NCBI GenBank assembly: GCA_024614665.1
Contig: GCA_024614665.1_4861.1
DNA length: 64,000 bases
Reading direction: 5' to 3' (one strand)
Source: a phage
Part shown: one piece after another, positions 11,231 through 30,247 of the stretch
Numbering within the stretch: position 1 is the first letter of the stretch
Layout: each line of letters starts with the position of its first letter
The notes under the pieces: generated by a model
The model's input: the letters and a program-made list of their open reading frames with translations, nothing else
What the model was told of the DNA's origin: nothing
Databases searched by the model: none
Made by a program: the position numbers and the translations under genes

Positions 11231-11929
11231 TTAGGGTATTAGGCGTTGGGCTATTTCGCGGAGTTGGTCGCGGGTTAAATCAGCCAACTTCTGGTCGCCG
11301 AAGCCCAACTTCAGACCCAGCTCGTACCCAGCTTGCGGATACGTGTTCGTGTTTGCTACTGAGAGGAGTGCATCGGCTATCTTTACCATCGTTAACTCGA
11401 GAGACGCATACGGGGCGGGGATCGGCTGATTCACGATTTGGTAATTATAACGCACTGCGGCGTTATCGTAGTCAAACTCCATCCTTCTGCCGAGAACGTT
11501 AAACGACTCCGCAGAATAACTACCAAATGGGTGATTGGCTTTTTCCCACAAATCTTTCCGTTCAGTAAACCCAGTCGCGAAGTTCTGACGTATGGTGTCG
11601 AATATTTGCGTTGCCTGGCTAGGGTGTATATTTTTCAGCTCATTGTAGTCGTAGTCGGCGATGGAATATAGAGTGAACACAACACCGTTTATATTTAACT
11701 GCGGATAATCCATCCGCAGACTGTCATCACCTTGTAAATGAAGTTCCCACATCCTTACCCACTGCAATATCGCGCTTACCGCATCGTGACTGAGATAAAA
11801 ATTAGTAGGTTCTTCAGGATTTTCACGGAAGGGAACAGAGCATTCCGATACAAAAAAGCCGGCTGCCATAAATCCTCTGCCGTCGAACATAGGCGCAACT
11901 AATCTTGATTTTTCTAAATTGATTACCAT
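11231..11929 (-). CDS. hypothetical protein (232 aa)
   Basis: ORF track; ATG 11929; promoter-like element 41 nt upstream. Confidence 0.55.
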   Translation of the reverse strand: MVINLEKSRLVAPMFDGRGFMAAGFFVSECSVPFRENPEEPTNFYLSHDAVSAILQWVRMWELHLQGDDSLRMDYPQLNINGVVFTLYSIADYDYNELKNIHPSQATQIFDTIRQNFATGFTERKDLWEKANHPFGSYSAESFNVLGRRMEFDYDNAAVRYNYQIVNQPIPAPYASLELTMVKIADALLSVANTNTYPQAGYELGLKLGFGDQKLADLTRDQLREIAQRLIP

Positions 11930-11988: not shown

Positions 11989-12033
11989 ATTTTTAGAAAA
12001 AAAGAAAAAGCTTACTCCCCGAAGGGAGTAAGC
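11989..12033 (-). terminator. intrinsic terminator (minus strand)
   Basis: Stem cttactccc/gggagtaag, then plus-strand A-tract = U-tract after hairpin in minus transcript; follows stop of gene 12065..14365. Confidence 0.6.
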
Positions 12034-12064
12034 TAATCTTAGGCAACGTAATCCTTACGGATTA

Positions 12065-14365
12065 TTAGCCGCCAGCGCCTTCACCGCCAGTACCTGGCTG
12101 GGTAGCACCGCCGCCAACATCACCAGCATTACCACCGTCAGTACCGCCGGTGCCGTTGGAAGTAGTAGTGACGTTGAACGCCAGTTTCTCTTCCACGAAC
12201 TTGGTGATACCTTTAATCCAGATCAGACCAGTGATCGGGCAGTGGCAGATGTGCGCGTTACGAGGCTGTACTGCCAGCTCTTTGCTGGTAGCGCCGTTAC
12301 GCTGGATGTTGATGTTGGTTACCATGATCGGAGACCAGAAGTGGTTACCCCAGTTCAGAACACAGTAAGAACCATCATCAGCGGTTGGAACTTTCAGAAC
12401 CCACTGCAGGCGGCGAGTCCAGCTGCCGTCAGCTTCGTTCTTCACACGCCAGCGGTCATCGTTGGTGGTGATAACTTCGTACTCGTAGCGATCGCCCAGC
12501 AGACGCTGGTCGCCCTGAACCAGCAGCAGCATTGCAGCAGTCGGTTCGTCAGTTGCGATAACAACTTTCGGCAGTGCGTTCGGGTCCGCAGTCAGCAGGC
12601 GCAGAGCCGGCATGAAGCGAGAGTCCTGGATAGCACGAGTTACCTGGTCACCGATACGCTGTACCAGACCCTGACGGGCGTTGATGAGCGCATCTTTGGT
12701 ATCCAGAGACTGGATCACTTTGTCCACTTCGTAGTCGCTTTCGCTGTACCACGGAGCAACCCAGTGACGGCCCAGGCCGCGGATAGCAGGTTTGTCCCAC
12801 GGAGTGATCATGGACGCAGCTGCGTTCTTAACCGCTTCGGTGTAAGACAGAGTCTGAGTGATAGCCAGCATTTCGTTACGGATGTTAACCGCAGAAACGA
12901 GGTCGTCCAGACGTTCGGTGTCGTCGTATTCAACGCCAACCGGAGATTTGGTCATGATCGGAGAACCGTACTGCAGTTTGTAGTTCTCTTGTTCCCAAAT
13001 CGGGTCGAGCAGAAGGCCCTGGGTTCTCCGGTTCTCGTTGGTACGAGTACCGTCGAAGCGCCAGCCCAGCAGCTCCAGTTTCAGGTTGTCGATGATGACT
13101 TTGCCGGTGCCGCTTTCGATATCAACAGCAGTACCAGTTGCATCGTACAGACCTTCGATTTCCAGAGACGGTGCAGTCACGTCAACACGACCAGAGAACT
13201 GACCGTTGGTGAACAGAGACATGCTGATGTTCATGGAATAACGAATGGTGTAATCGTTCTGTGCCAGAGCGGCCAGTGCCGGGATTTCAGCACCTTTCCA
13301 GTCCAGAGACTTGGCGTTCAGGGAGAACACAGTGCGACGGAACTGCAGGACCAGCTCACGACCATCACCTTCAGGAGGACGCTGGAAGGTAGCGAACTGC
13401 ATGTCGCGTACGTTCAGTTTGATCAGCGCACCATCTTTCGCTTCTTCGCTCGGCTTACGCACAGACAGCAGCAGGCTACCCAGCGCTGCACCCGGTGCGA
13501 TTTCGTCGGTTTCATCGTAACCTTCCTGCACGATACCCGGATGGGCAGACAGCTGGAACAGGTTCAGACGACGCTCAGAGAAGCTCAGGTAGTTGGTCGG
13601 ATACGCCGGCACACGACCCAGCTGAACGTTTTCGTTTTCGATGATGTCTTCGGATACGAAGAACTTCGCGTTCTCACCGGTTTCCATCACGTAAGGTACG
13701 ATACGGATAGCATCGTCCTGCAGGACTTTGTGGTTAGACAGCGCGTTATGCAGCGGCTGACGGTTGTCTTCAACCACGTCTTTGGTCAGCAGGGCGTTCA
13801 GGATACCACGAGTTACAGTAGTAACTTTGGTACGAACGGTGATGCCGACGTCGTTGGTGTCCACAGTGATGGTCGGGAACAGGGTTTCTGCAAACTTGGA
13901 TTGAGTTTCCAGAGCACGCACGTTCAGCGTCCAGGTCAGACCCAGGTTTTTGTCCAGGTCTTTGTTGGTGTAGTATTCGGTTGCGACCAGCGGAGTTTTA
14001 CCGTAGTCAGCAGCCAGGGATGCTGCACCAGAAATAGCGATCGGCATATAGCTGGCGTATTCCGGCTTCGCGCTCTCAGCAGCAACACGGGTCATGAAGT
14101 CATCTTCGTGACCGGCAGCAGCCAGAATCATCGCAGAAGCAACCTGAGCAGCGTGGCTCATGGTTTTGCCAGGGTTTACAGCTTCGTAGTGCTGCTGAGC
14201 AGTGTCACGCAGGTTGGTGAAGCCGGCAGCATTTTTACGTACAGATTCGCCAACGGCTACGGTTTGCCATACGTCATTAGCGGAAGAGCCTGCCTTGGCA
14301 GCAGCGACCAGAGCATTGCCCTGCTGAACCAGCTGGTCCAGACTAGCGATACGGGTATCTTTCAT
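12065..14365 (-). CDS. candidate major virion structural protein (possibly major capsid protein), 766 aa
   Basis: Strongly biased codon usage typical of a very highly expressed gene, flanked by terminator; size in the range I recall for phiKZ-type major capsid proteins; no motif-level proof. Confidence 0.35.
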   Translation of the reverse strand: MKDTRIASLDQLVQQGNALVAAAKAGSSANDVWQTVAVGESVRKNAAGFTNLRDTAQQHYEAVNPGKTMSHAAQVASAMILAAAGHEDDFMTRVAAESAKPEYASYMPIAISGAASLAADYGKTPLVATEYYTNKDLDKNLGLTWTLNVRALETQSKFAETLFPTITVDTNDVGITVRTKVTTVTRGILNALLTKDVVEDNRQPLHNALSNHKVLQDDAIRIVPYVMETGENAKFFVSEDIIENENVQLGRVPAYPTNYLSFSERRLNLFQLSAHPGIVQEGYDETDEIAPGAALGSLLLSVRKPSEEAKDGALIKLNVRDMQFATFQRPPEGDGRELVLQFRRTVFSLNAKSLDWKGAEIPALAALAQNDYTIRYSMNISMSLFTNGQFSGRVDVTAPSLEIEGLYDATGTAVDIESGTGKVIIDNLKLELLGWRFDGTRTNENRRTQGLLLDPIWEQENYKLQYGSPIMTKSPVGVEYDDTERLDDLVSAVNIRNEMLAITQTLSYTEAVKNAAASMITPWDKPAIRGLGRHWVAPWYSESDYEVDKVIQSLDTKDALINARQGLVQRIGDQVTRAIQDSRFMPALRLLTADPNALPKVVIATDEPTAAMLLLVQGDQRLLGDRYEYEVITTNDDRWRVKNEADGSWTRRLQWVLKVPTADDGSYCVLNWGNHFWSPIMVTNINIQRNGATSKELAVQPRNAHICHCPITGLIWIKGITKFVEEKLAFNVTTTSNGTGGTDGGNAGDVGGGATQPGTGGEGAGG

Positions 14366-14377
14366 TTCAAGTTTACC

Positions 14378-14902
14378 TTATTTAGATAAATGACATGCGT
14401 ACAACTGCGTCAGCACTTCGTGCGCAGCAAACTGCGTCGACGTACTGAACGTATCATCCACGACACGAGTCTTGGGACGCATATATTTAAAAAGTTCTGC
14501 GCAGAACATCTTTTTCGCAGCGTGGTCTTCACTTAAAGAAAAACCCGGTCCGGATTTAGCTTCTGCAAAAGACGCCACAACAACATCGCCACGTTGTGAG
14601 AACACCCAACGTAAACGACCGTCGAATGATTCCCCATATAAATCAGCAAGGGTTTCATTCGTACCTTTCTCAACCAGGTTTAAGACCTGGTCATAATAAA
14701 GAGTCGGAAGTGCAGGTGGTGCCATAATCGATTTATAAATCGAAATAGGGTCACTCACTGGCAGTATGATGGAACTAAAGCCCGACGAGCAGTCATATAA
14801 CCAGTTAAAGAAGCTTGCTTGGAGTTCCTCCAACTTTTTAACGCCAGCCCCTTTATCTATGTTAGATTGAACTTCCCACGGTGGACTAAAACGAATTTGC
14901 AT
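14378..14902 (-). CDS. hypothetical protein (about 174 aa)
   Basis: Track ORF 14378..14956; in-frame ATG at 14902 avoids overlap with divergent plus gene; 12-nt gap to downstream gene suggests co-transcription. Confidence 0.5.
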   Translation of the reverse strand: MQIRFSPPWEVQSNIDKGAGVKKLEELQASFFNWLYDCSSGFSSIILPVSDPISIYKSIMAPPALPTLYYDQVLNLVEKGTNETLADLYGESFDGRLRWVFSQRGDVVVASFAEAKSGPGFSLSEDHAAKKMFCAELFKYMRPKTRVVDDTFSTSTQFAAHEVLTQLYACHLSK

Positions 14903-14916
14903 TTTAAGGATGCTCC

Positions 14917-16479
14917 ATGAATAGTAAAATGATGTTGATAACCGCCTTAGCCGCACTGTATACAGAATCTATGCTGACGGACCCTAGCAAGGATCATGAT
15001 GTCATAAGAAAAGTTCTGATGCAGATCAAGCTTCCGGAATATGCGGAAGATGGCGAAGAGCGCTTTGCACTCATCGAGATCAAGGACATTATCACATCTA
15101 TCATAGACGGCGGCATGGAATACGACCACGCGAGCGTTATGAAGCGCTTGAAGCTGGCCACCACTCAAGTACGTCCTCTATACGATACGATTACCAAATT
15201 CCTCGAAGACGATTTGCCCGAGGAAGAAGACAAACGTACCGAGCATCTTAATCGACAACTGTCTCAATATTATTTCCAATTACGTCAATGTTTACAGAGC
15301 GTCGAACTCAAAACAAAAATGGGTCGCGCGTTCGGAGCATTGAATGGAACTGAGACACGTGTTGATCTGAACACCGCAGTGCTCGAACTCAAAGAGGCGC
15401 TATCTACGTTCGGTGAACGCTCTCATAATAAGATTCCATCACTGGTCGGTGAGCTGGTTACAGATAATCGGGCTCCGTTTGTTAAAGTGTTCGACTCGAT
15501 TAACAAGAAAGCAGCAGGTAATGGTTTGCAGACGGGCTGGAAAGCCATTAACCAAATGCTCGGTTGTAACAAAGGGATTACCGAAGAACTGTGGCTAATG
15601 CCGGCGTTACCTTTTAACTGTAAGTCTTTGTTCAGTCTCTTGCTGAGCTTATCGATTCCTATCTTCAACACGCCTGAGAAAGTAATGGCGGATGTGAAGG
15701 GCACACTGCAACCAATTATTCTTGACTTGAGTTTAGAAAACGAACTCGACGTTAACTTAGCTTACGGCTATCAAGCTCTGTACGGTCATTTTGAAGGACA
15801 AGTTCCACAGATGACCATTTCACAGGATGCAACCGCTGAAGAGAAGTTAGCACACACAACAGCAATGTCTGATTACCTCTGTGGTAAGATTCGCGCAAAC
15901 GGTTGGGACTACGTTTTCCAAAAGCACACCAACTCCGATTTTAAAGTGCACTACATCAACGACCTTATTCTCGACTTACGTCGTCGCGGTTATCATGTTG
16001 TTGGCATTCGCGCAGACTACTTAGGCACAATCAGCAAAGCAGGACACGGCAACGGTATTGCCGGGAGTGATATCAAAGAAATTTATCGTATTGCTCGTAA
16101 CATTCAAGTGGTGCGCAACCGTGGGTTCTTAATTGCCCCACACCAGATTTCCCCAGAAGGTAAGCGCTTAAAAGCGTTAGACCCGGTAGGTTTCTGTAAG
16201 AACTTACCTGGTCGTGGTCTTTACGATAGTTGTTCGAGCCTTGATAACGAGGCCGATGGTGAAATGTATTTTAACAAGCGTGTGGTCAACGGCCATAGCT
16301 TCTTAGAAGTTCAACGCGGTAAGCACCGCACCATTATCGATACTAAAGAATCTTATCACTACACAGTGATACCTTTCCAGGATGTTGGCATCCTGCCTTG
16401 GGATTGTGATAAAGAAGAAACCGTAACAGCGTCGTCTATCAACTTCTTCACCGGTGGAATGGGTGATGATTTGTTCTAA
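14917..16479 (+). CDS. hypothetical protein (520 aa)
   Basis: Long ORF with AAGGA RBS; minus strand over the same span has only short ORFs. Confidence 0.6.
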   Translation: MNSKMMLITALAALYTESMLTDPSKDHDVIRKVLMQIKLPEYAEDGEERFALIEIKDIITSIIDGGMEYDHASVMKRLKLATTQVRPLYDTITKFLEDDLPEEEDKRTEHLNRQLSQYYFQLRQCLQSVELKTKMGRAFGALNGTETRVDLNTAVLELKEALSTFGERSHNKIPSLVGELVTDNRAPFVKVFDSINKKAAGNGLQTGWKAINQMLGCNKGITEELWLMPALPFNCKSLFSLLLSLSIPIFNTPEKVMADVKGTLQPIILDLSLENELDVNLAYGYQALYGHFEGQVPQMTISQDATAEEKLAHTTAMSDYLCGKIRANGWDYVFQKHTNSDFKVHYINDLILDLRRRGYHVVGIRADYLGTISKAGHGNGIAGSDIKEIYRIARNIQVVRNRGFLIAPHQISPEGKRLKALDPVGFCKNLPGRGLYDSCSSLDNEADGEMYFNKRVVNGHSFLEVQRGKHRTIIDTKESYHYTVIPFQDVGILPWDCDKEETVTASSINFFTGGMGDDLF

Positions 16480-27632: not shown

Positions 27633-28892
27633 TTACTTAGACTTTTCGTACGCACCGATACCGGCGCTGATGTAGCCGTTAACGCCGGCGATCAGGTTTT
27701 TCTGGCCAGTTGCAACGCAACGTTCGGTCCAGGAGATGTACTGGTTCGCAACGGTGATTGCACGACGTGCAACACGGACGTTGGAAGTCAGTTCAGCGTT
27801 GTCGTCGATCTTCACGCCGTCGATACGTTTCAGCAGCGCCTCAATAGCCCGCTCGTACGATTCTTGAGCCTGGTTATTTTTGTGGTACGCTTTCACGTTC
27901 TCTTCGACTGCTTTACCCAGCTGGTTGAAGAACGCAACCAGAGAAGACAGCGTCTGAGCAGACGGAGTAGAAACAGATTTTTCTACGCTGCCTTCAGCAT
28001 CGATAACGGTGAAGGAAGCTTCCAGGTCATCCCCGTTCACTTTCACGTCAGCTTTACCGATCTGGTTACCCAGCAGTTGAACTTCGCCCGCTTTGCCTGC
28101 AGTGGCTTTGTTAACCGCTGCTGCGAAGCCGCTGTTCAGTTTCCCGCCTTCAACTGCGCTGACCATGCTGGTTGCAGCTTTGACCACTGCATCCTGCTCG
28201 CCGTAGATGCTGCCGATAGTAGACAGAACACCTTTCAGGACGTTGATGTCGTTACCGACGAACTTACCACCGGTGGTCAGGTTCTTAATGAACCCACCGC
28301 TAACGGTGTCTTTCTTCTGCTTGCCCAGGCCACGCAGAGCCGCGTCATATTTCTTAGCGCGCGCCTGAATGGATTTACCCTGGTTGCTGAACTTGAGCCA
28401 GCGATCTTTGATTTTACGGCCTTGTTCTTTCAGCCAGTCGAAGATACGCTGCAGGAACGCTTTGATGTCGTCCCACAGTGATTCACGAGCAACCTGACGG
28501 CGTTTACGTGCGCCGTAAGATTCCTGCGCAACGCTTACGCGGTGATCGAATGCCCAACGTTTACGGATAGATTCCTGCGCAACGTCCAGCTGCTCAGCAG
28601 CTTCGTCAGGCATATCTTCTTCCACTTCCATTGGCTCTTCGCCATCTTCGCCTTCGCCGTCAGCAGCGGCTTCAGCAGCATCAACTGCATCCAGCTGTGC
28701 ATCAGTTTCGTCACCGTCTTCTGCCAGCACGTCTGCTTCTGCGTCCAGCTGGTCGATCGGTTTGGTGTCATGCTCGATGTCGGCCAGGGTACCTTCCACG
28801 GACTCAGCCGGCAGCTCGATGCCATCTGGAACGACAGTGCCTGCGCCTTCGACAGATTCACGAGCGAGTTTACTTTTTACAAAGTTAGCCAT
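27633..28892 (-). CDS. hypothetical protein with acidic N-terminal region, tandem paralogue A (419 aa)
   Basis: Shares N-terminus MANFVKSKLARESVE, internal VAQESIRKRWA and LGKQKK..SGGFI, and C-terminus NGYI(S/G)AGIGAYEKSK with neighbouring gene. Confidence 0.6.
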   Translation of the reverse strand: MANFVKSKLARESVEGAGTVVPDGIELPAESVEGTLADIEHDTKPIDQLDAEADVLAEDGDETDAQLDAVDAAEAAADGEGEDGEEPMEVEEDMPDEAAEQLDVAQESIRKRWAFDHRVSVAQESYGARKRRQVARESLWDDIKAFLQRIFDWLKEQGRKIKDRWLKFSNQGKSIQARAKKYDAALRGLGKQKKDTVSGGFIKNLTTGGKFVGNDINVLKGVLSTIGSIYGEQDAVVKAATSMVSAVEGGKLNSGFAAAVNKATAGKAGEVQLLGNQIGKADVKVNGDDLEASFTVIDAEGSVEKSVSTPSAQTLSSLVAFFNQLGKAVEENVKAYHKNNQAQESYERAIEALLKRIDGVKIDDNAELTSNVRVARRAITVANQYISWTERCVATGQKNLIAGVNGYISAGIGAYEKSK

Positions 28893-28969: not shown

Positions 28970-30247
28970 TTAAGCTTTAGACTTTTCGTACGCGCCAATA
29001 CCAGCGCCGATGTAGCCGTTCAGGCCGCTGATAACAGTGTTACCAACGTGAGCCACAGCACGGTTCAGAGTCTGGTAGTTACGCACAGCCTGGTCAGCTG
29101 CAGTGCGTGCATTACGCAGCGCTTCCCACTCGCCTTCGTCGTTGGATTTTTTCAGAGCGGCAGCAGCTTTGGCAGCAGCCTCTTCCAGTTTCTCAACGTC
29201 AGCATCGTAGCTGCGGAAGTCTTGCAGGACTTTCTCGAAGCCTTTACCGATAACGTCCAGGGCAGACGCAGCAGATGCCAGTGCAGAAATAGCCGGAGTA
29301 GCGATTTCTTTCGTTTCAGAAACGTCACCCGTCGACAGGAAGGCCACTGCGGTGAATTCCTGACCGCCTGCCAGAGTTTTGGTGCCGGTCTGTACATAGG
29401 CGTTGCCTGGCAGTGCCAGAACTTTCTGACCGCCTTCGCCGTCTTCGAATTGCGGCAGTGCGCGCAGTTTCTTCGCAGCGGTACCAAACAGGGCAACGTC
29501 AACAGCGCCTTTAGCAGCGGTTGCGGTACCGTCTGAAGTTTTGGTGATCGCTACAGCAGAGTCAGCCGCCTGAGAGGACAGCTTGTTGATAGCATCTTTC
29601 GCTTTACCGCCGGTCAGCTCTTTCGCGATAGCGATAGAGTTGGCCACATCGAATTCACCTTCGATAGACAGTTTGCTAATAAAGCCACCAGAAATGTTTT
29701 CTTTCTTCTGTTTGCCGAGCTTACGCAGCATCTCCTGGTAAGCTTTCGCACGTTTCTGCGCGGACTTACCAACGTTGATGTACTTCAGTTTCAGCTCTTT
29801 CGCTTTCGCGATAACTGCTTTACACAGTTCAACGAAGCGTTCGAACAGATCTTTCAGGGTTTCTTTCCAGCCTTCCTGAGCTGCTTTGGTCATGCCACGG
29901 CCACGGCGATAAGATTCGCGTGCCAGTTTGGTACGATCGATAGCCCAACGTTTACGGATAGATTCCTGCGCCACTTCGGTGTGAGCGATGGCTTCTTCAG
30001 GCATCTCTTCACCGTTTTCGATTTTTTCGTCAGCAGCGTCGATAGCAGCTTCGGTACGCTCGGTATCAGCAGCCAGAGTTTCCTGGTCACCATCGAGCTG
30101 TTCCAGCTGACCGTCGATAGACGCAACTTCTGCCAGCTGAACGTCGATGTTCTCTTCTGCCGGTTCAACGTTGCTCAGACCGTCGATTACGTCGCCGGTA
30201 GCTTCAACGGACTCGCGGGCGAGTTTACTTTTTACAAAGTTTGCCAT
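28970..30247 (-). CDS. hypothetical protein with acidic N-terminal region, tandem paralogue B (425 aa)
   Basis: Paralogue of 27633..28892; first about 14 codons and last about 20 codons nearly identical at nucleotide level. Confidence 0.6.
   Translation of the reverse strand: MANFVKSKLARESVEATGDVIDGLSNVEPAEENIDVQLAEVASIDGQLEQLDGDQETLAADTERTEAAIDAADEKIENGEEMPEEAIAHTEVAQESIRKRWAIDRTKLARESYRRGRGMTKAAQEGWKETLKDLFERFVELCKAVIAKAKELKLKYINVGKSAQKRAKAYQEMLRKLGKQKKENISGGFISKLSIEGEFDVANSIAIAKELTGGKAKDAINKLSSQAADSAVAITKTSDGTATAAKGAVDVALFGTAAKKLRALPQFEDGEGGQKVLALPGNAYVQTGTKTLAGGQEFTAVAFLSTGDVSETKEIATPAISALASAASALDVIGKGFEKVLQDFRSYDADVEKLEEAAAKAAAALKKSNDEGEWEALRNARTAADQAVRNYQTLNRAVAHVGNTVISGLNGYIGAGIGAYEKSKA

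Follow-up and report, generated by a model that had tools for sequence, protein, structure and literature searches.

Within the window, the 64,000-nucleotide stretch of phage DNA analysed here, one minus-strand gene is almost certainly that of the major capsid protein in an SPN3US/SEGD1-type jumbo phage of Salmonella (Seoulvirus, phiKZ-like), the reading that best explains the evidence jointly. The assignment rests on sequence homology together with published experiments on SPN3US gp75, a protein 99.7% identical to the one encoded here. The gene itself is already known, gp75 being well studied in SPN3US. We describe the capsid locus (Table 1), its codon usage and the long antisense reading frame that goes with it, as well as a Gly-rich C-terminal tail that recurs in the family.

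Table 1 Features of the capsid locus, with positions in the window
Feature	Coordinates	Strand	Basis
Major capsid protein CDS (SPN3US gp75 orthologue)	12065..14365	minus	ORF of 766 aa plus TAA; Pfam, PHROG, identity to SPN3US_0075
Predicted N-terminal propeptide, residues 1-130	13976..14365	minus	ATE-130 site; published gp75 peptide data
Predicted mature capsid-shell body, residues 131-733, embellished HK97-type fold	12167..13975	minus	PDB alignment, Foldseek, mass
Low-complexity Gly/Thr/Ala-rich acidic tail, residues 734-766	12068..12166	minus	Composition, pLDDT ~30, hypervariable
Predicted intrinsic terminator, 11-bp stem, TTCG loop, T-run	11997..12034	minus	Fold z = -4.75; stem conserved
gp74 orthologue, 174 aa, PHROG 8266	14378..14902	minus	174/174 identical to SPN3US_0074
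715-aa antisense ORF, non-coding by-product of codon usage	12242..14389	plus	Complementary frame, no TTA/CTA/TCA

The first-pass annotation had tentatively proposed a phiKZ-type major capsid protein, and homology searches with the translated product, which runs from an ATG to the TAA stop, bear that proposal out. Residues 72-725 align with positions 2-634 of the 635 in the Pfam model PF25620 (PhiKZ_MCP; E = 7.6e-226), and the score of 751.6 bits against a gathering cut-off of 27 makes the protein a full-length member of this family, for which we found 710 representatives in total. The match to PHROG 3231, ‘major head protein’, covers positions 1-745 of 746 (E = 6.9e-298). Sequence matches in the PDB were jumbo-phage capsid proteins only, with E-values from 1e-49 to 1e-28: 11bt/36za (1.1e-49), the phi-kp24 protein 8bfl (3.7e-32) and phiKZ gp120 (8y6v, 1e-28). 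Each spans nearly the whole mature region, which establishes homology to capsid proteins already placed in a shell. Identity to SPN3US gp75 (SPN3US_0075) extends over 764 of 766 residues, S306T and D743N being the only differences.

Near-identity to SPN3US is a property of the surrounding DNA as well. Over 3.1 kb, the capsid locus is 99.4% identical to SPN3US and 99.8% identical to SEGD1, slightly nearer to the latter. The orthologues of gp39, gp53, gp54, gp65, gp74 and gp75 are each 99-100% identical to their SPN3US counterparts and of equal length, and the neighbours that we checked agree with SPN3US (gp74 upstream, the divergent helicase gene gp73). Near-identical DNA and type-phage gene order around the capsid locus thus place this phage in Seoulvirus. 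Many of the matching GenBank records already annotate the gene as a major capsid or head protein.

We also built an AlphaFold (AF2) model from a 35-sequence alignment. The model is mediocre (mean pLDDT 63, pTM 0.43), and the Foldseek matches it returned combine strong E-values (3e-29 to 3e-6) with low TM-scores, 0.16-0.38, those to solved capsids being 0.29-0.38. The only significant matches were the capsids of the jumbo phages phiKZ, phi-kp24 and Staphylococcus S6, so that the structure prediction proposed earlier as a check agrees with the capsid assignment, though more weakly than the sequence evidence. Taken alone, the predicted fold would be weak evidence for capsid identity. Neither the literature nor our PDB sequence search yielded an atomic model of the SPN3US capsid or an experimental structure of gp75 or one of its near relatives.

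In place of a capsid protein, the first-pass annotation had left room for a different very abundant virion protein, the tail sheath for instance. Only a generic argument speaks for a sheath, namely that strong codon bias is the mark of abundant structural proteins in general. Against it stand the full-length PhiKZ_MCP and major-head PHROG matches and the fact that all significant PDB sequence matches, as well as every Foldseek match with E <= 0.001, are capsid proteins; moreover, the SPN3US sheath is a separate gene, gp256, according to PMC5105663. A sheath or other non-capsid virion protein is therefore scarcely credible, and the PhiKZ_MCP, PHROG 3231 and PDB matches refute the tail-sheath reading in particular.

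Among the solved capsid proteins, phiKZ gp120 is the founder of PF25620 and belongs to the same T=27 size class. It is the best Foldseek match, and its PDB alignment spans query residues 130-726, although identity to the protein studied here is only ~20-24% (PMC5105663 Table 6). The phi-kp24 major head protein (8bfl) and the 740-aa capsid protein 11bt/36za are likewise homologous over the whole mature region. Phage T4 gp23 offers a more distant parallel: PMC5694885 describes it, like gp75, as an abundant late protein with an HK97-type fold with additions and an N-terminal propeptide cut after Glu by a prohead protease, the T4 propeptide having 65 residues versus 130 here. T4 gp23 does not belong to PF25620, and none of our profile, PDB or Foldseek searches with the capsid protein returned similarity to it.

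Published work on gp75 indicates how the protein would mature. According to PMC5694885, the SPN3US gp75 precursor of 83.9 kDa is reduced to 70.4 kDa by loss of a 130-residue N-terminal propeptide, and gp120 of phiKZ resembles gp75 in having a long propeptide at its N-terminus that a prohead protease cuts off behind a Glu. Cleavage of gp75 after ATE-130 was seen by mass spectrometry and does not occur when the prohead protease gp245 is mutated (PMC7411985). In the protein studied here, the ATE motif occupies residues 128-130, as in SPN3US gp75, and E130 is invariant in 35 homologues, across which the propeptide is more variable than the body (entropy 1.75 versus 0.84 bits). The site-spanning peptide TPLVATEYYTNKDLDKNLGLTWTLNVR (residues 124-150), recovered from SPN3US by mass spectrometry, is identical here (PMC7411985 Table 4). 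The masses that we computed, again shared with SPN3US gp75, are 83.8 kDa for the precursor and 70.4 kDa for the mature protein, beside the published 83.9 and 70.4 kDa. By analogy with gp75, the motif points to removal of the propeptide after ATE-130 in this phage too.

Virion mass spectrometry, which the first-pass annotation had suggested as a check, is already published for SPN3US and favours the capsid assignment, since gp75 is the most abundant virion protein there. PMC5694885 reports that gp75, relative to its mass, has the top spectral count in purified virions and is present in 1,560 copies; PMC10052503 puts the number at 1,615 in a T=27 shell and reports that later analyses matched more peptides to gp75 than to any other protein. 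The text of one published proteomics supplement file makes no mention of gp74, gp75 or gp76. Cryo-EM, as summarized in PMC7552025, identifies the outer shell of SPN3US, made of gp75, as an embellished HK97 prototype. On the basis of this work, the protein would be made late in infection as an 83.8-kDa precursor, of which ~1,560-1,615 copies would assemble as hexamers and pentamers into a T=27 outer shell with an embellished HK97-type fold. The prohead protease gp245 would then cut after ATE-130, and loss of the 130-residue propeptide would leave the 70.4-kDa subunit.

The narrow codon set that had first drawn attention to the gene holds up in a comparison of the 51 non-overlapping ORFs in the window that reach 100 aa. 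Wright's Nc is 33.2, the lowest of the 51 (mean 49.8, s.d. 6.8). We scaled codon adaptation (CAI) to 27 E. coli K-12 genes (25 ribosomal-protein genes, rpoA and tufA), a stand-in for an enteric host; at 0.793, the capsid gene has the highest CAI of all (mean 0.47, s.d. 0.108, z = 3.3) and exceeds even the average for the E. coli reference set (0.70). By this measure, cryptic E. coli gsp genes lie at 0.25-0.41. Its codon preferences are the translationally optimal pattern of enteric bacteria: CTG makes up 94% of Leu codons, ATC 88% of Ile, TTC 95% of Phe and AAC 91% of Asn, while GGT and GGC account for 100% of Gly, ACC and ACT for 98% of Thr, and CGT and CGC for 95% of Arg. The codons ATA, ACA, TCG, GGA, GGG and CCC are never used.

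The cross-gene CAI comparison that had been proposed puts the capsid gene first and the gp53 and gp54 genes behind it: ranks 2 and 3 of 51, by both Nc and CAI, go to the ORFs at 28970-30247 (gp53) and 27633-28892 (gp54), whose products are identical to their SPN3US orthologues at 424 of 425 and 417 of 419 residues, respectively. Because gp75, gp53 and gp54 are also the three most abundant head proteins (PMC7552025, PMC7411985), the bias tracks protein abundance. The link between codon bias and expression is a correlation, seen in three of three top-abundance proteins. As a validation that draws on the letters of the genome alone, codon bias singled out the three most abundant head proteins. 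The need for ~1,600 copies of gp75 per virion would explain the strength of the bias: demand for so many copies would select the codons best translated by an enteric host (among them CTG, CGT, GGT/GGC, ATC, ACC/ACT and TCT), and such selection would raise GC3, which is 0.61 in the capsid gene, and lower Nc. A scan of the window for tRNA genes found no phage tRNA genes bearing on the codon bias.

Higher GC and a narrow codon set might instead reflect recent horizontal acquisition from a donor of higher GC content, and local GC does rise to 0.544 over the gene, compared with ~0.48 in the surrounding DNA. The bias is aimed at host-optimal codons, however, with a CAI (0.79) above the reference mean. 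CTG is chosen, yet CTC, TCG, ACG, GGG and CCC, which also end in G or C, are avoided; this avoidance of non-optimal GC-ending codons marks the pattern as translational and not compositional. The same signature is carried by gp53 and gp54. The capsid gene is, furthermore, a core gene with orthologues throughout the phiKZ-like group (the 710 family representatives; PMC5105663 Table 6), and its bias is kept in orthologues at 86-87% DNA identity. We thus regard a horizontal origin as very improbable and translational selection as the better explanation of the codon set.

Codon usage also explains, as had been surmised, the 715-aa ORF that faces the capsid gene in the exactly complementary frame. 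The capsid gene contains no TTA, CTA or TCA codons where ~19 would be expected from usage in the window, and without them the complementary frame has no stops, so a spurious 715-aa ORF results. Loss of these three codons, and with it the open antisense frame, would be a side effect of selection for host-optimal codons. A genuine overlapping gene has two points to recommend it: across 5,000 synonymous resamplings with background codon usage, the longest antisense stretch without a stop had a mean of 131 codons and in no case went beyond 359, and the frame is open in the relative SPAsTU too. Resampling with the capsid gene's own codon usage, on the other hand, left the antisense frame fully open every time. 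The antisense translation, which would begin at a GTG, has neither a Pfam nor a PHROG match at E <= 1 and is rich in Val, Gln, Arg, Thr and Phe, as expected for the complement of a biased gene, and in the orthologue of Erwinia phage pEa_SNUABM_29 the frame is interrupted by a CTA at codon 205. There is hardly any chance that this ORF is a real gene, and we reject it as an artefact of capsid codon usage. Very long antisense ORFs facing highly biased genes call for caution, as they can be artefacts of this kind.

The Gly-rich C-terminus had been held against the capsid assignment as unexpected for such a protein. The sequence quoted in the first-pass annotation matches the end of the capsid protein exactly, but the reservation is not borne out by the family. 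All 34 of the 34 close homologues (43-99% identity) carry a tail, 11-53 residues long. For the wider family, we surveyed the 141 best-scoring full-length representatives of the 710 matches; among these 141, the median extension past the column of query residue 730 is 6 residues, while 28 (~20%) extend by 20 residues or more, for the most part acidic and rich in G, S, T and A. The tail is best regarded, from these alignments, as a recurrent and loosely constrained appendage of the family, and as no argument against a capsid protein. The solved homologues stop where query residue ~733 aligns, and the tail lies beyond: the chains of 8bfl and 11bt/36za, which are without a tail, end at query residues 733-735, and position 735 of 747 in phiKZ gp120 already aligns to query residue 726, leaving a short C-terminal end in which a long Gly-rich tail is absent.

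In composition, the 33 tail residues are 45% Gly and 79% G, A, S, T or P; three of them are acidic and none is basic (pI 4.05), and they are predicted to be disordered (pLDDT ~30). A semi-conserved, GGNAGDVGG-like core is recognizable in most relatives down to ~59% identity, whereas the distal part is hypervariable, and the nearest database variant shows four differences, three of them in the tail. These residues would accordingly form a flexible, low-complexity tail poorly constrained in sequence. Tandem Repeats Finder, run on the capsid gene, detected no repeats in the DNA that encodes the tail, and hence no array there to suggest expansion by slippage. We found no discussion of a Gly-rich tail in the portions of the SPN3US capsid literature covered by our search, which went mostly through mentions of gp75.

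One speculative reading, which we consider unlikely, is that the tail is functional: a fast-evolving, flexible, acidic Gly/Thr-rich ‘brush’ shown ~1,600 times per capsid. Retention of the GGNAGDVGG core in relatives at 59-99% identity, variation of the distal part in length and sequence, the concentration in the tail of differences from the nearest database variant, and recurrence in ~20% of the representatives surveyed could count in its favour. Were it true, the tail might help the phage adhere to surfaces or to glycans of the host, keep so large a particle colloidally stable, or touch decoration proteins or those of the inner shell. The AF2 model, with its pLDDT of 63 and pTM of 0.43, is not good enough to assign the C-terminus to the inner or the outer face of the capsid. 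The tail is a small loose end in an otherwise well-studied protein, and the amber-mutant system of SPN3US makes it testable.

Downstream of the gene, a strong terminator had been predicted, and both folding energy and comparison with relatives agree. A hairpin at 12034..12009, 30 nt past the capsid stop codon, pairs AGCTTACTCCC with GGGAGTAAGCT around the TTCG loop and is followed by TTTTTCTTTTTTT. The 70 nt past the stop codon fold at -27.1 kcal/mol versus -12.9 +/- 3 in shuffled sequences. The stem of both SPAsTU and pEa_SNUABM_29 is AGCTTACACCC/GGGTGTAAGCT, a compensatory swap of T-A to A-T; because both sides have changed and the pair is kept, this is good evidence of a functional hairpin. 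The capsid transcript would thus end at a strong, conserved intrinsic terminator.

Upstream, the gp74 orthologue starts, following the SPN3US annotation, at the ATG at 14902, which gives it 174 aa and not 192 aa. At 0.398, its CAI is unremarkable. Only 12 nt separate its end from the capsid ATG, no convincing terminator lies in that gap, and the records of two relatives annotate the gp74 and capsid genes with a 4-nt overlap; judged by this layout, it is plausible that the two genes share one transcription unit. A sigma-70 promoter scan around the capsid gene returned 5 sites, compared with 4.7 expected by chance. Sigma-70 is the wrong promoter model here, as phiKZ-like phages rely on RNA polymerases of their own for transcription, and their late promoters, defined only by TATG at the start site, are unpredictable (PMC7598289). 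Just downstream of the capsid terminator, the window carries a 232-aa ORF that is absent from SPN3US.

The site that follows the terminator of the major capsid protein gene (a 766-aa product, orthologous to SPN3US gp75) looks like a variable slot occupied by a small paralogous gene family. In this phage the slot holds a 232-aa ORF with its own strong Shine-Dalgarno sequence (AAGGAGA) and the lowest codon adaptation index (CAI) in the window, 0.303; the associated insertion spans about 11240-11885. The same ORF was found in SEGD1 and in the SPLA and SPFM phages, and it is missing from SPN3US, JN03, EC001 and Lh1B, which have about 40 bp there instead. In Proteus phage 7 and MET_P1_082_240, a near-identical match was missing for most of the ORF (37% of the query matched), and the corresponding place is similar in length. 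Downstream of their capsid genes, the relatives SPAsTU and Erwinia phage pEa_SNUABM_29 carry a 45%-identical homologue, together with weaker, paralogue-like C-terminal matches. In neither of these two relatives is the sequence of the small hairpin after the capsid stop codon conserved.

Features flanking the capsid gene, and the gp53 and gp54 orthologues (Nc, effective number of codons)
Feature	Position	Strand	Remarks
232-aa ORF	11231-11929	minus	PHROG 15414, no assigned function; directly downstream of capsid terminator
Second small hairpin, UAAUCC-GUAA-GGAUUA	12049-12064	minus	immediately 3' of capsid stop, before main terminator
gp74 start, ATG	14902	minus	
DnaB-like helicase start, ATG	14917	plus	
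SPN3US gp54 orthologue	27633-28892	minus	Nc 36.9, CAI 0.729
SPN3US gp53 orthologue	28970-30247	minus	Nc 34.4, CAI 0.768

Several SPFM GenBank records (LR5359xx, Salmonella phages SPFM1, 5-10, 12, 14, 15 and 20; proteins P0036-P0039) matched the window only as 13-16 short pieces per 915 bases, and the proteins entered there as 'major capsid protein' (743, 712, 517 and 510 aa) are strings of the true protein's ~20-aa blocks in reversed order. Together, the short-piece matches and the reversed protein blocks suggest a database artefact, with the sequence scrambled in blocks of roughly 60 nt when deposited. Homology searches then show more apparent diversity than there is.

On the other side of the capsid gene, the start codons of the small upstream gene gp74 and of a DnaB-like helicase are divergent and only 14 nt apart, and the promoter of either gene must therefore sit within the coding sequence of its neighbour. 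In the mechanical ORF list, gp74 is lengthened to a GTG at 14956 (192 aa) and so overlaps the helicase start.

Behind the capsid gene, the gp53 and gp54 orthologues take second and third place in the window for codon bias, by Nc and CAI alike. Both are abundant ejection proteins. Their ORFs account for a local GC peak at 28-30 kb.
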